A stretch of DNA of 64,000 bases from Candidatus Bathyarchaeota archaeon (GTDB lineage Archaea > Thermoproteota > Bathyarchaeia > Bathyarchaeales > Bathycorpusculaceae), in contig OY970340.1 of NCBI GenBank assembly GCA_963717465.1, forward strand, positions 704,001-768,000, in the 5' to 3' direction. Of the stretch, positions 39,001 to 45,000 are shown piece after piece (the first letter of the stretch is position 1; every line of letters begins with the position of its first letter). Made by a program: the position numbers.

Positions 39001-42000
39001 AGCTTGTTTTAGCTGCAACTAATCTGGGTCTTGGAACATGCTGGACAGGCTTTTTCAACGAGGAAGATACCAAGAAAATGTTGCAGGTACCTGAAAATAT
39101 TAAGATAGTAGCGTTAATACTATTAGGTTATCCTGATCCCGCTGGCACCATCGGCAAAGACTTGAGAGAAATGGTTAAGGGTGACACTAGAAAACCGCTT
39201 GAAGAAATGATCCACAAAGAAAAATGGTGACAAATCGGACTAAACGCTAAAGCTTTGCCAGTTCACCTACACTTCTTGTAAACTCATCTTGTTTTAAAGC
39301 AGCCCCTGCATGCACCAAATCAGGGCATTCACCCGGGACTTTACGGAACCCTGAATAAGCAGCCAAGTGAATGCATTCCATCTTCATCTGAATCTAAATT
39401 GCGCTTGCCTAATTATGCGCTTAGTTACCTGGATGGCGGGCAAGCTAAGTTTTGCAAGCAAGAAAAAATAAGCAAAGATGTGCGATCAAAAGCGAGGTTG
39501 AAATAAACCATCGTCAATGTTATTTTTAATATCCGCTGGTGGTGGCTGTGGCTTTACAGGTGGTAGACCTGGAAACTCTTTTCTTATGGTCATCCATGCT
39601 ATCTTTAATGGTCTTTCCATGCTCTCTAGAAAGAATACGACGTCATCGTTTCCACCTAAAGTTACCAGTATCTCGCTGTTTATTAACAGGGCAACCATGT
39701 AAGACTCTCTGCCTTCCAAGCAATGTTTCAGTATCTGCACTGCTACATATTCCATAATCAGTGTTGGCTCTTTTACTGCTCCTTTGTGTACTGTTATTTT
39801 GTCTTGATGTGCTTCAATTTGCAAGTTGGCTTTAGGGCAATCTGCAAACCGGATTTCAACAACCATTTCACAGCCTTTAAAGGCTTCAAGAGCTGCAGGG
39901 TCTACACTAGCAATCGTGAATAATCGATGCATGAAGTCCAATAGCTTTGGTTCAATATCAGTTGACATATCATGTCCTCAACACTTTGATATTTTAACTA
40001 AGTACAATAAAAAGGTAATAAAAAAATTTAACTTATTTATGATAGTCTTTCAGGCTTTCCAAGATTACTTCTTCGGTACGTACTCTTTAGCTGCTTCGAC
40101 GAAAGCTTTTACGTTCGCAAGTGGGACTACTGATGAGATTCCGCATCCTGGCTCCAGCAAATCAGCGCCTGCCTGTAATGCATTCATTGCTTCAGCTTTT
40201 ACTTCAGCCGGTGTACCAAAGACTAGTGTCTTCTTTGAGGATACGTTGCCTAAGATTTTAACGTCACCGACTAAGTTCTTAATGTTAGCAATGTTTACAG
40301 CTTCTTCTATGCTTATGCCATCGAACCCTGAATCGACCATTTCAGGAATTAGTTTTTCTGTTCGCCCGCAAATGTGCAAGACTCTAATTCCGCCTAAGTT
40401 GTCAGTTAAATCGAGTAGTACGGGTTTTACAAATTTCTTGTACCAATCTACGCTTATCATTTCAAGTGACGCCATTGGCTCAGCAATACATACAATGTCA
40501 GCACCTGCTTGAAATTGCGCTTTTGCATATTGCAAAACGAAATCGTATCCAAATTTAGTGTATGCCTTGATGTTGTCAGGAGATCTTACAATCCATTTCA
40601 AGAAAGTTTCTATTCCTGGTAACTCTCCGGCAATTGTGAACGGTCCAACTACGTGACTTGCAATTGGTAGATAATCGCCTACTTGTTTCCTTAATAGTCT
40701 GATGGCTTCCAGCACAACGGGAATTCTGCCTAATTCGAGAATGTTTTCAGGCATTTTTAAGTCTTCGGGTTTCGCAAAGGGATGTCCTTTTACTGCAGGA
40801 AGATGCTCGGGGCTATCGAACCATTTGACCTCGCATCCTAATGCTTCAGCTTCTACCACGAAATCGAAGGGAACCCTGACACATTCGACGCCAGCTAATT
40901 CATAGCTAGCTATAGCTAGTTTTGCCATCTTTTCCGCGTTTTTGTGGGCGTCTGGCCAGAATATTCCAGTAGCGTTTTGCATATCAACGTTAACTGTTCC
41001 TCCACATCCCGCAACTGAAGTCGCTGGTATCCTATCAACAGGCCCTCCTAACAGGGCAGCCATAACTCGTCGTTTAGGGCTAAATTTTTTCAATTACTTT
41101 CCTCCTTTTCTTTCAAAATTAATCTTGCGTACCTAATAAGATTTCCGTAAAGAAGGCAAAACTATCCTGTGAGCAAAATAATATGGCGGAAAGATGTTTT
41201 TCAGGCAAAGTTCATGGGTTTGTTGTTTTACAAGTTTTCAAATGTTCAAGTTTTCAAAGTTTGCTGGCGAAGTTGCGCTAAGTTAAGAAATAGAATTGTT
41301 ACTTGCTATAGTGTGCATCGTTAAACTTGTTTGGCGTACCCTGCAGCATGTTCTATTGATTGTGCGGGTGAGAAAAGCTTGTTAAAAGTTTTTTTGAAGC
41401 ATTTATAAGGCTTTTGTCGACTTATCGCAAAAATATAAATACCTGCAAGCCCAACCAAGGTATTAGGTGAATAAAATTGAGACTTGGAATTAATATTCCT
41501 AAACGATTCGCTCCACCTATAGCAACAGACGAGGAGCTTATGAAAATCCATCAAGCCGCAATGTATCTATTACAGAACGTTGGAATTGGAGGAGTCACTC
41601 CTAAACTACAGAAATTGTTCAAGGATCTAGGCTGTACTGTTATTGACGAGAAGAAAGGCGTTGTTACGATACCTCAACATCTTGGAATGGAAGGCATAAA
41701 TGCGATACCAACTACGAACATTTTGCCCGGTAGGGTACCCGCAAACGACATTGTCTTGGAAGCTGGAAGCCGAAGATGTTTTGCTGGGGCTTTCGGAATC
41801 ATGGCCCTTTACGCAAAATTTAATCCGAGCAACCGAAACTTTGAGTATCGAGACGGAGTTGATGCTGACAACTGGAGAGAACAGAAGGTTACTGAGTACT
41901 TCCCAGAATTCGACATGGTAAGCCCAATTTACCTGCCTATGGACTTGGCAGAGGCAGGCTTGCCAGTGGACACTCATGACCTCAACAGCACCATTCAGTG

Positions 42001-45000
42001 CACTACCAAGCATATTTGGCACATTGACGCAATTGACCATATTGACTGCTACACTGAGTTAGCCGCTGAAGTTCTCGGAGGAATGGACGAAGTTGCGAAG
42101 AGACCATTCATTACTAACCATGGAGACACACCAGGCATCGTTTACGGTCAAAAGACCAGTGACAGAATGTACGCAACTGTAGAAGGCTGGCAAAAAGGCA
42201 GGCCTCTGATGATAGACTTCACTGATGTTTGCATACCTGGGTTCCAGGGTCCCCTTAGCTTAACAGGAGCTTACGCAGTGACCGTTGCTTGCGACATTTC
42301 AATGGCAGTAGGTTTAGCTCTAGGAATGAACGGAGTTGGAAAAGGGCGTATCCCCGACATGACCTACGCACTAGTCATGGCCATGGACGCATACACACAA
42401 CAGTTAGGATGCATGACTGAATTTACCAAGTGTCTAGCTCTACACGCGAACTTCTGGCACCGCAACTACCCAACACCAAAAGCTACCATGTGGCCAGGTG
42501 TAACCATTGGAGGTAACATGGGTAATGCAGATACACAAGGTGGTATGTTTACTTACCATTTGATGAACGCCATGCAGAGCGGTACTGATCAGTTCGGATG
42601 TTGGCCCACAACCGTAGGTCCAAACGGAATTAGGATGGCAAGTCACACCATCAACGCTGAATGTATCCGAATGTTTACACACATGTTCCAAGACCTTGAC
42701 TTCGGCGCTTCAAACTTCGCGTATGAAAAATGGCTCAAGAAAGGTCCAAGAGGCGACTTCATGAAGGAACCTGAAACTCTCAAAGGAATGGCAGACATTG
42801 GTTTCATGCCCATGAGACACGGTTACGGACTATATGAAACAAGGCAATGGCTACGATGGATTGAAGACAGACTCGGCTTAGATGACCGCGCAGAAGCTTT
42901 GACTGCAAAGATTATAAAGGAATATCCAGCTCCACTACCACCAAAAGACGTAGCTGACAAAATGAATGCAATAATCACTAAATACGACAAGGTACTACAA
43001 ATCGGCGGCTATCAAGTAGACGTAAAGGGAACCGGAGCAAGATTCTAAGGAGACAAAAAAGAAGGAATCATTTATGGTAACTAAAGCTGAAGTACTTGAA
43101 CACCTCGCAAAAGCAATCATTGACTATGATGAGGAAAAGGCTGTTGCAGCGGCAAAAGAAGCAGTAGAAAACAAGCTGGAGATTATGGACGCTATCGAGA
43201 AAGGCCTATCAGTTGGCATCAAAGAAGTTGGTGACCGCTTTGGCCGCTTCGAATACCCACTACCCTACGTAATCATGGCTGCAAACGCGATGACTGCTGC
43301 AGTTAACTACCTCAAAGAAAAGTATCCCAAAGACAAGCTGCCAAAGGCAAAAGGCATAGTCGTAATTGGCACGGCTTTCGGCGACATCCACAGCATCGGC
43401 AAGAACTTGATTGCTGACATGTTGCGTACCGATGGCTTTGACGTTTATGACTTAGGTGAAGAAATTCCAACCGAGGACTACGTCAAGAAGGCTGAAGAGG
43501 TCCATGCTGATATTGTTGCGATGGGCGCTTTGATGACTAGCAGCATGTCTTATCAGAGAGCGCTGGTTGATACGCTTGTTGAGCGTGGTCTTCGTAAGAA
43601 GTATAAGGTTCTTGTTGGCGGTACTCCGATGACTGATGATTTCTGCAAACGCATTAAGGCTGATACTTGGGGTGCGGACTGCGGAGACGCAATCAAGAAG
43701 GCAAGAATGCTCGTAGGCAAAACTTAAACAAACTGCAAAACCGAAAAACAAAAATATCTATCCTCTTTTTCTTTTCTCTGTATAAAATCTAAAATTTAAA
43801 ATGAAAGGTGGAAAATGTTATGTCTTATGAAGATAAGTTGATGAATTTCGCGTATAAGTTGTATTCTAAGCTTGCTGATGATCCTGCTATTATTGATGCG
43901 TGTAAGGATCAGGAGAATGACATGATTGTTGAACTAAGTATTGGTGATGTTCCTGATGTTGTTTGGCAGATTGGTTCGAAGGGTAAGAAGTGGGTTGTGA
44001 ATAAGGGTAGTGTTGATGAGGCTAATGCGGCTATTCAGTATCTTAAGCTTAAATACTTGAATGATTGGTGGTCTGGTAAGATGGGTGCTGACGCGTTGTT
44101 TTCGCAAGGAGCCATGTCACTGTTGTCTGGTGACCTGGGTGATCTGGGTTTCATGGCGCCAGTTGAAGAGCCATTAAAGAAAGTTTATCAGCAGATTAAA
44201 GGCGAATTTCCAGGTCTACCAGAGTAGACTGCAAAAATCCTATATTTTTATTTTTTTGTCGTTTAAAACATTGTTCTCTCAGAGAAAATAAGGCACTATT
44301 TCTTAAGGTCAAAACCTATAATAACAGTGCCTAGTTTTCGGTTAAAGATGTCTATTCCCATCCTGCTTTTTTGATAATTATCAGAATGGGGCGTTGGGGA
44401 CCCTACTATAGCATTGCAGGCGCCTGAGACCTTTTCAACTTCGGGACATGGCAAAGGTGAGAAGACCACTTTGGAACGCTCTATAAGCATTTCCTCAGGT
44501 TTAGGCATCCTATCTTTGTAGAGCGCAATGTTCCCCATAAAGATGGCACTCTTATTCTTTTTTAATTCTTCCCGTTTGACAGGGTCAGGAATATCCTCTC
44601 CTATCACTTTTCCTTTCCACTCAACGATCATCATTGGTACAGGAGGCCATTCAAAAACCATATCCGTTACGCAAGCAACTACGACTTCCCGCTTTAGGAC
44701 TTCCTTAACCCCACGGTTATCGCCAAGCCCAAGCCCCATCAATACCTCTCCCTCAGACAGCGCTTCAAGCTCCAAAATCTTCTGTCTATCCTCATTAGTG
44801 AGAACTAATACTTGACGGATACCTTTGAGACTTTTGAGTCTTGATAATACTTCGTTAACTACTTCCTGATGCGACAAGAATAATCCCTACGCCATGCCAG
44901 ACGCAATAATAATTATCTATTCTCGTCTATAAATCATTAGGGTATGATCATGCAAATTTGCCAGAATCGAGGTTGACTGCATTAAGTTTGTAAAACAACT

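Follow-up and report, generated by a model that had tools for sequence, protein, structure and literature searches.

A recurrent trio of MttB-like, corrinoid and SCP2-fold genes in a Bathyarchaeia genome and its possible hydrophobic methyl donors

The known donors of methylotrophic methanogenesis are small soluble compounds and methoxylated aromatics. A window of 64,000 nucleotides from a Candidatus Bathyarchaeota archaeon (contig OY970340.1, positions 704,001 to 768,000) raises the question of which donors are served where a MttB-like methyltransferase gene is followed by genes for a corrinoid protein and a small third protein. McrA is present in this Bathyarchaeia genome and in 0 of 119 congeners. 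The genes concerned are listed below; coordinates count along the window, which is the whole stretch analysed, unless they are given as contig positions.

39486..39968, minus strand: another SCP2 protein of subfamily T, 160 aa, encoded downstream of mtaA (33% identity with the 135-aa protein)
40065..41093, minus strand: MtaA-type methylcobamide:CoM methyltransferase II (NF004889 367 bits, cut-off 244; TIGR01463 342 bits, cut-off 235)
41477..43048, plus strand: MttB-superfamily methyltransferase I, non-pyrrolysine, divergent clade 1, 523 aa (PF06253 61.8 bits; no internal stop)
43074..43727, plus strand: corrinoid protein, 217 aa, with DxHxxG motif (PF02310 and PF02607 over cut-off)
43820..44227, plus strand: SCP2-fold protein, subfamily T, 135 aa (model of pLDDT 93.6, Foldseek, VIA-align)
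46317..47297, plus strand: MtrH-like methyltransferase II, probable corrinoid:H4MPT (PF02007 on both pieces)
47392..48039, plus strand: second corrinoid protein, 215 aa (PF02310, PF02607)
48045..49987, plus strand: RACo/RamA-type corrinoid reactivase (RACo Pfam domains on two ORFs)
50206..51957, plus strand: thermosome-like chaperonin paralogue accompanying the module (PF00118)

The window trio consists of three co-oriented ORFs with intergenic gaps of 25 and 92 nt, and mtaA is divergent from it with 383 nt between. For the 135-aa protein, the ATG at 43820, which matches the starts of its homologues, is the most likely start, with a GTG at 43808 as the alternative. The mcr, MtrH and RACo genes are interrupted in this assembly. 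The MtrH-like gene holds an in-frame stop and is 82% identical, in one frame, to an intact paralogue at contig 1652593; the RACo/RamA gene is frameshifted and has an intact paralogue at contig 1655442.

Five trios of this kind had been reported in the genome-wide survey's note, and all five were recovered, at contig 119683-122439, 745477-748227 (the window), 1206292-1209034, 2488462-2491204 and 2814076-2816792. The window trio is not an assembly duplication, as 50 differences occur in 1154 nt with identical proteins. A corrinoid gene follows seven of the nine clade-1 MttB genes, and the SCP2-T gene is absent from the operon in four of the nine. Seven corrinoid gene copies are near-identical, with 39-84 synonymous and 0-13 non-synonymous codon differences, and the window SCP2-T gene differs from the 119683 copy by 6 synonymous and 0 non-synonymous changes. 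SCP2-T proteins are almost identical in three trios while their MttB partners differ by about 30%; this indicates that the carrier does not track substrate specificity. Prediction of a MttB, corrinoid and SCP2 complex scored 0.00 with controls that did not fold either, a result that weighs on neither side.

Membership of the first protein in the MttB family is clear from Pfam (PF06253 MTTB, 61.8 bits against a cut-off of 25) and from the ESM Atlas, where 30 of 30 matches are MTTB. Its best solved relatives are MttB (7xcl) and MtgB (9yce/2qne). The structure model is weak (pLDDT 44.7); searched with Foldseek, it gave ten matches at E<=0.001, all of them MttB-family chains at an rmsd of 15-17 A. 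The divergent clade exists as described earlier, with nine rather than ten genes: the window gene, seven at 67-73% identity and a copy with an in-frame TGA at 71%. The tenth gene (contig 2321035-2322529, in two pieces) belongs to another subfamily, 21-25% identical to the window protein. In a quick tree of 59 rows, where the tenth gene is present as its C-terminal piece only, a sister relation between this subfamily and clade 1 is possible (support 99, but with a warning of long branches). The homologue search again returned 16 hits, eight from the same contig, and a second search with the clade alignment gave nothing further. MTTB was again found in 0 of 119 congeners. One clade-1 relative each came from a pattern scan of genome contigs and from a metagenome scan.

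Trimethylamine-type MttB proteins depend on pyrrolysine, for which no sign was obtained here: TAG is absent from all nine clade genes, as had been stated before, no PylS passes the cut-off in the genome, and there is no tRNA-Pyl among the 38 tRNAs called. The position of Pyl334 in MttB is Gly in the window protein in either alignment register. Selenocysteine was considered for the TGA copy (contig 1121411) because the genome has tRNA-Sec calls, and was rejected, since the eight paralogues vary at this site and none has Cys there.

The betaine site of MtgB comprises R312, H348, F356 and Y97, and R312 is kept in MthB and in all characterised acidic-substrate members (PMC13080624). When these residues are mapped by bridge alignments of 24% identity, the R312 equivalent is Ala in 16 of 16 clade rows and Thr in the TGA copy, and the window protein has no Arg between Pro334 and Gln354 in either register. 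By the same low-identity mapping, H348 becomes Gly or Cys and F356 becomes Asn or Pro, while Y97 corresponds to Phe106, so that the aromatic is kept. An insertion of six residues with a conserved Lys/His follows a conserved Pro and adjoins the site. Identity among clade-1 paralogues is 87% over residues 131-260 and 61% over residues 301-420, and three of the four residues of the MtgB site fall in the latter, variable part. Absence of the Arg is frequent: among the 34 other homologues in the tree, 28 are without it and 6 keep it, and archaeal MttB homologues lose it also where there is no SCP2 neighbour. With no pyrrolysine and no betaine-binding Arg/His, the donor is probably neutral and bulky, as judged from sequence.

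The SCP2 assignment of the 135-aa protein was the weak point of the earlier note, and a confident model together with two structure searches now supports it. The model (pLDDT 93.6) contains five strands and five helices. SCP2-domain proteins occupy the top Foldseek ranks (best E 1.4e-5), and VIA-align gave ten chains at Z>=8, all SCP2-type, among them human SCP2 8af2 with Z 11.7 and rmsd 2.4 over 109 residues. Comparison of the 135-aa family with its Pfam-positive paralogues by hhalign gave 86% (E 5e-6), and the ESM Atlas scores of 0.93, with SCP2 on 12% and 53% of cluster members, were reproduced. The window protein itself has no Pfam match and lies under the PF02036 cut-off, which is passed by one of seven subfamily T members scanned (P0033), with two more at E 0.06-0.15. 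A hydrophobic cavity for a lipid-like ligand may go with this fold.

An expansion of SCP2 proteins in this genome stands, while the figure of 25 against about one elsewhere does not stand as given: the count is nearer 26, and the comparison mixes two methods. An iterated profile converges on 25 only with the mixed seed, which is circular. Starting from the Pfam members alone, it ends at 19 proteins and excludes the 135-aa family; starting from that family alone, it yields 6. The 25 proteins divide into three subfamilies (of 6, 9 and 10), an extra member lies at contig 2159015, and at least two of the set are truncated or broken. The ten PF02036 matches here were confirmed, against 0 in 3, 1 in 73, 2 in 3 and 3 in 1 of 80 congeners. 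Like-for-like comparisons set 6 here against no close member in 119 congeners, and 11 genes here against 0 of 119; a pattern scan of genome contigs for relatives of the 135-aa family gave 0 of 89 stretches. Of the 25 SCP2 genes, 17 lie within 5 kb of a corrinoid-protein gene, where 7% is the random expectation.

The order MttB, corrinoid, SCP2 recurs in other lineages with another SCP2 subfamily, which is a new observation of the present analysis. A metagenome contig (L029) carries a clade-1 MttB, a corrinoid and a different SCP2 subfamily in the same order. In a survey of 33 genomes of one order (McrA in 32 of 33), a second MttB subfamily, type 2, precedes a corrinoid and a different SCP2 subfamily in all 6 carrier genomes; hhalign between the two SCP2 subfamilies gave 1.3%. 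These loci are also accompanied by MtaA, RACo and chaperonin genes, the set seen in the window, and the window chaperonin is this genome's best match (42-46%) to the chaperonin of five MttB-corrinoid-SCP2 clusters elsewhere. Several type-2 MttB copies have no SCP2 neighbour. In a sample of 400 genomes of the class, type-2 MttB was found in 0, and clade 1 gave only two weak N-terminal matches.

A promoter matrix derived from 15 promoters of genes other than MttB (MtmB-like, KstD-like, Mo-enzyme, flavin reductase) ranks five of the nine clade-1 genes in the top 1% of 2905 genes; the motif is absent from the window trio promoter (3.2 bits). Four of the five trios lie within 20 kb of a MtmB-like gene, with 8% expected per locus, and the window trio is 475 kb from the nearest. 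KstD-like genes stand directly beside non-pyrrolysine MtmB-like genes in this genome, and the best solved match of the motif-sharing flavoprotein is a 3-oxosteroid 1-dehydrogenase (E 1e-82). The leading candidates for the donor are steroid, terpenoid or polyphenol-like ring compounds, given that most clade-1 genes share their regulation with ring-modifying enzymes.

Taken together, it is somewhat probable that the trio forms the entry point for substrates into a corrinoid system in which hydrophobic donors are demethylated, feeding CoM or H4MPT. The SCP2-fold protein would bind a hydrophobic methylated compound or the product of its demethylation and carry it to or from the enzyme. The MttB-like TIM-barrel protein would position the compound so that corrinoid Co(I) takes the methyl group. 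Methyl-Co(III) could then hand the methyl group to CoM by way of MtaA, whose gene is divergent from the trio, for onward use by Mcr, or alternatively to H4MPT by the MtrH-like protein, with RACo presumably reactivating oxidised cobalt. A range of related donors would be served by the nine paralogues, whose pockets vary while their corrinoid partners are near-identical. The presence of many MttB copies, often beside a small SCP2-type protein, suggests demethylation of water-insoluble molecules. The earlier proposal of hydrophobic donors instead of small methylamines is thus supported in part. Its second half is backed by the lack of pyrrolysine and the loss of the MtgB betaine residues; its first half, which we infer from the conserved order in other lineages and the co-regulation with ring enzymes, is tempered by the frequency of Arg loss and by the four clade-1 genes without SCP2-T.

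Other readings share much of this evidence. It is fairly unlikely that SCP2 serves corrinoid modules in a general way, as a scaffold, membrane tether or cofactor chaperone, and is uninformative on the substrate, while the MttB-like enzyme demethylates small neutral or cationic carboxylate-free compounds such as choline-like or tertiary amines. SCP2 genes adjoin three different methyltransferase-I families in the genome, SCP2-T and corrinoid copies are homogenised while MttB partners diverge, MoxR/VWA genes and the chaperonin travel with the module, and UbiJ-SCP2 is among the fold matches. UbiJ-SCP2 has a scaffold role. The retained Y97-equivalent aromatic also fits small amines, as does the action of a non-pyrrolysine MtmB homologue on tetramethylammonium and choline (PMC13044021). 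Against this, SCP2 proteins of two distant subfamilies have been drawn into the same position, the genes that share the promoter motif with five clade genes are of KstD-like, Mo-enzyme and flavin-reductase type and not amine transporters, and nine variable-pocket paralogues would exceed the need for a few small amines.

A narrow form of the preferred reading is anaerobic steroid demethylation like that of AbeABC, with further ring methyls removed after the KstD-like and MtmB-like enzymes. The KstD-like/MtmB-like pairing, described for AbeABC (PMC11912376), occurs here and in Jordarchaeales and Freyarchaeota loci; the promoter motif and MtmB-like linkage fit. This form is nevertheless unlikely: AbeA and EmtA are MtmB-family and not MttB-family, the motif-sharing flavoprotein stays below every NCBIfam KstD cut-off and does almost as well on a cyclohexane-ring dehydrogenase model (433 vs 413 bits), and one genome (G488) carries clade 1 with no MtmB match and only weak flavoprotein matches.

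It is quite improbable that the enzyme N-demethylates membrane-lipid head groups, with the SCP2 protein presenting phosphatidylcholine, lyso-lipids or betaine lipids to it. Known family chemistry would be retained, since MthB, a MttB member, uses phosphocholine (PMC13080624), and a Dehalococcoidia locus holds two MttB genes, a corrinoid gene, a SCP2 gene and an alpha/beta hydrolase close together; however, R312 is absent in 16 of 16 clade-1 and 9 of 9 type-2 rows, and no lipase was recognised next to the five trios among the neighbours annotated, which are a part of the total. That the system methylates its own lipids or quinone-like carriers is very improbable: EmtAB methylates estradiol (10.1101/714501), which shows that methylation is open to systems of this kind, and SCP2 domains serve in ubiquinone synthesis, with such a protein among the fold matches, but the system is absent from 119 congeners that would need the same core lipids, nine diverging pockets suit catabolism, and the neighbours MtaA and MtrH are the usual methyl acceptors.

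Returning to hydrophobic donors, a wider proposal is tentative, and possible rather than probable: a module of MttB-type enzyme, corrinoid protein, SCP2 carrier and MtaA, recruited twice with different SCP2 subfamilies, would make methane from lipid-, steroid- or terpenoid-like methyls in mcr-bearing Thermoproteota. It would be the first case of a MttB-family enzyme acting on a substrate that is water-insoluble or not an amine. It counts against hydrophobic donors that all characterised members named in PMC13080624 act on methylated amines and that the characterised O-demethylases are UroD-family (PMC13222342). If true, a carrier-assisted module would give a direct route to methane from recalcitrant lipid-like material in soils and sediments, both in Bathyarchaeia and in a second order with mcr. 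Annotations of mttB in such genomes, taken as trimethylamine use (as in passages of PMC9478090 and PMC11264602), can hide unrelated substrates. The SCP2 protein is small and well folded in its model, and a co-purifying ligand would indicate the substrate class.

Among known systems, MtgB/MtgC/MtgA of Desulfitobacterium hafniense (2qne, 9yce) and MtcB, MtpB, MtyB and MthB (PMC13080624) likewise combine a non-pyrrolysine MttB methyltransferase I with an adjacent corrinoid protein, and MtgB-type systems have a methyltransferase II and a RamA-type activator nearby. Compared to MtgB, the window protein is 15-17% identical in a structure-based alignment that uses the model of pLDDT 44.7, and clade 1 has lost the R312, H348 and F356 equivalents and gained the insertion after the conserved Pro. 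Here the operon also contains a SCP2-fold gene, and MtaA with mcr is the probable sink. MttB/MttC of Methanosarcina barkeri (7xcl) provides the best solved sequence match (E 2e-15, residues 15-212), whereas the window protein, with Gly for Pyl334 and neither amber codon nor PylS, reaches 113 bits on TIGR02369 against a cut-off of 525. AbeABC of Phosphitispora TUW77 (PMC11912376) and EmtAB of Denitratisoma (10.1101/714501) also perform corrinoid methyl transfer, in their case on a water-insoluble ring substrate, and this genome's KstD-like and MtmB-like pairs, which resemble AbeABC, share the motif with five clade genes. In both systems methyltransferase I belongs to the MtmB family, whereas the trio enzyme is MttB-family and the MtmB-family genes here are separate neighbours under shared regulation; AbeABC and EmtAB are also bacterial and work with THF or SAM rather than CoM. 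Sterol carriers or SCP are not mentioned in the main texts on AbeABC and EmtAB, and a literature search covering main texts, mostly of papers outside subscription, gave nothing on SCP2 in corrinoid methyltransferase operons of archaea or mcr methanogens. Stand-alone SCP2 proteins (human 8af2, Thermus 1wfr/2cx7, Archaeoglobus AF1534 3bn8) and UbiJ-SCP2 6h6n have the same fold as the 135-aa model (Z 8.2-11.7 over 101-117 residues). The 135-aa protein is 8-21% identical to them, falls below the Pfam cut-off, has a longer C-terminal helix and a conserved tail and, unlike the stand-alone SCP2 proteins, is encoded in a methyltransferase operon.

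The trio of genes lies in the window in one orientation and with short spacing:

41477-43048, plus strand: MTTB gene (MttB superfamily; Pfam)
43074-43727, plus strand: B12-binding corrinoid gene (Pfam)
43820-44227, plus strand: gene of the 135-aa protein, with no Pfam match

As the genome-wide survey's note had reported, the same order of MTTB gene, corrinoid gene and small-protein gene was found at five loci of the genome. Its grouping of ten genes as one divergent clade holds for nine close paralogues, here named clade 1, but not for the tenth MTTB gene, which belongs to a second subfamily, type 2. 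Among the remaining clade-1 genes, two are accompanied by a corrinoid gene alone and two are solitary. All nine paralogues are free of in-frame amber codons, as had been claimed; one contains a TGA at a variable site, and no PylS was found in the source genome. Between the window and the locus at 119683, the corrinoid gene shows 39 synonymous and 0 non-synonymous differences and the 135-aa gene 6 and 0. Both are under strong purifying selection, indicating that they are genuine genes and not assembly repeats.

The assignment of the 135-aa protein to the SCP2 fold had relied in part on a seeded profile, which is circular; the assignment itself stands through a structure model, structure searches and a profile comparison. 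The model, built from 20 sequences, reached a pLDDT of 93.6. SCP2 proteins and SCP2 domains were the top Foldseek matches (best E 1.4e-5). In a second, independent structure search, ten of 48,161 chains reached Z>=8, each of them SCP2-type, with 11.7 as the highest Z. Profile comparison of the family with the Pfam-positive SCP2 group of the genome gave 86%. A distant family member exceeds the Pfam cut-off, and another source names one member 'putative sterol carrier protein'. The 25 SCP2-type proteins counted by the survey have become about 26 genes in three subfamilies, and the congeners examined do mostly have one. Within the source genome, 17 of 25 SCP2 genes are located no more than 5 kb from a corrinoid-protein gene, compared to 7% at random.

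Outside the genome clade 1 is rare, with 8 matches among about 5.8 billion proteins. On the metagenome contig L029, a clade-1 gene precedes a corrinoid gene, after which comes an SCP2 gene from a different subfamily. The proteins P0022 (clade 1) and P0030 (SCP2-T, the subfamily of the 135-aa protein) come from the same source and from contigs of equal size (7288), suggesting a possible further trio. Among 33 genomes of one order, six carry type 2 and 32 have McrA. In all six carriers, which are relatives from three genera and do not represent six independent events, a corrinoid gene and an SCP2 gene come after one of the copies, with mtaA directly next in five. MoxR/VWA, chaperonin and RACo genes are also present in these clusters as far as the contigs extend. 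No SCP2 neighbour was found at the other type-2 copies of the six carriers or at type 2 in one Jordarchaeales genome without McrA. The two SCP2 subfamilies hardly align, which suggests two recruitments of SCP2. In G488, another genome with clade 1, a classical mttB with an amber codon and an mtbB-like gene (L220:5242-6729) lie a few kb from the type-2 cluster, so that this genome already possesses the usual methylamine route. At a Dehalococcoidia locus, two canonical-type MttB, corrinoid, pterin-binding methyltransferase, M24 peptidase and SCP2 genes run in one direction (L230:7194-13861).

The gene set of the type-2 clusters also surrounds the window trio, with mtaA and a second SCP2-T gene upstream; on the downstream side are mtrH-like, corrinoid, RACo and chaperonin genes. 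Further genes stand immediately upstream of this module (first line) and between the trio and the mtrH cluster:

34256-38445 (contig 738256-742445), minus strand: GcvH-like, OsmC-like, two radical-SAM and probable lipoate ligase genes
44296-44877, minus strand: 193-aa protein, no family match, two paralogues elsewhere
45026-45958, minus strand: DUF7666-like gene

The intergenic region between mtaA and mttB contains a 12-nt direct repeat (41231-41242 and 41247-41258) and no regulon motif; the repeat is possibly the site of a different regulator. The genome has about eight paralogous chaperonins of the thermosome-like kind, together with about twenty Lrp-type regulators that fall in one subfamily; many of these genes adjoin the modules.

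The source genome (3.05 Mb, one contig, 88% complete) is that of a bathyarchaeon, judged by EF-1alpha, which shows 91-92% identity with Bathyarchaeia records and 85-86% with Ca. Bathycorpusculum. McrA is present (E 2e-59), is 65-67% identical to McrA of the mcr-bearing order with type 2, and had no match in the 119 congeners searched. The mcr cluster (L073; G000:C1:1660046-1664846), with marker-type genes downstream, has its B and A genes interrupted in the assembly, and its subunit names were assigned from ORFs. Gene breaks are frequent in this assembly: the 1271 genes for which a paralogue exists include 81 split pairs. As assembled, the window's mtrH-like gene is broken by a stop and its RACo gene by a frameshift. 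Two tRNA-Sec calls were obtained.

According to the accessible part of PMC13080624, MtgB, the betaine methyltransferase of Desulfitobacterium hafniense, holds glycine betaine via Y97, F356, R312 and H348, and R312 is conserved in all characterised non-Pyl MttB members. The MtgB residues were mapped onto clade 1 by bridging through a canonical homologue. Y97 corresponds to Phe106, R312 to Ala336, H348 to Gly or Cys and F356 to Asn or Pro, in a register made uncertain by a six-residue clade-1 insertion in the site region; no Arg occurs in either register. The Pyl334 position is Gly. Judged from sequence, this excludes the betaine type for clade 1. The loss of Arg is no pointer to lipids, since the equivalent of R312 is also missing from 28 of the 34 other homologues in the tree. 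Identity among clade-1 paralogues is 87% in residues 131-260 versus 61% in 301-420, a pattern expected where specificity diverges while the corrinoid partner stays fixed. The structure model of the enzyme was too poor for pocket inspection.

We favour, at slightly better than even, a reading of the trio in which the methyl donor would be hydrophobic and the SCP2-fold protein would carry the methylated substrate or its product. Methyl groups would then pass either to CoM and on to methane or else to H4MPT. That the SCP2 protein is instead an accessory protein of the corrinoid module seems rather unlikely. Characterised O-demethylases are of the UroD family in the portion of PMC13222342 available.

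A steroid-specific donor is a narrower form partly overlapping the hydrophobic-donor reading. The genome has six non-Pyl MtmB-like genes and five flavoproteins. The flavoprotein tested matches the 3-oxosteroid 1-dehydrogenase 7p18 best (E 1e-82) and keeps Tyr118, Tyr363, Tyr536 and Gly540, which have a catalytic role. The genome also encodes about ten acetylene-hydratase-like Mo/W enzymes, each of them broken into ORFs of 150 and 607 aa, along with several flavin reductases of the BaiCD/NCR-like kind and with SnoaL, lipocalin and START-type proteins. A 26-nt motif directly upstream of the TATA box is shared by promoters of the MtmB-like, flavoprotein, Mo-enzyme and flavin-reductase set. When 2905 genes were ranked by a matrix built from 15 non-MttB sites, five of the nine clade-1 genes fell in the top 1% and another at 3%; three, the window copy included, were missed. 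Four of the five trios have an MtmB-like gene no more than 20 kb away. In the accessible text of PMC11912376, a 3-oxosteroid-type dehydrogenase activates ring A, after which the MtmB-family AbeA takes the C-19 methyl. However, the flavoprotein falls under all KstD cut-offs, a non-Pyl MtmB homologue acts on tetramethylammonium and choline (PMC13044021, as far as accessible), and the draft genome G488 has clade 1 without an MtmB or KstD-like gene. A steroid-specific donor is improbable, and a lipid head group, another narrower and partly overlapping form, is more doubtful still. KstD-like, MtmB-like, corrinoid and mtrH-like genes are clustered at loci of Jordarchaeales (L055) and Freyarchaeota (L057), with KstD-like proteins 53-54% identical to the flavoproteins of the source genome. 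Close homologues of the window's ligase and radical-SAM genes flank the MtmB-like gene at L055, and PF02036 matches 8 times in the Freyarchaeota genome.

The trio provides a testable lead toward a new class of methanogenic substrate. A literature search, supplements aside, found no published description of an SCP2 gene in a corrinoid methyltransferase operon. Corrinoid systems with three components are already known, as are non-Pyl MttB enzymes, and the trio is a real, conserved and undescribed version of this known type of system.
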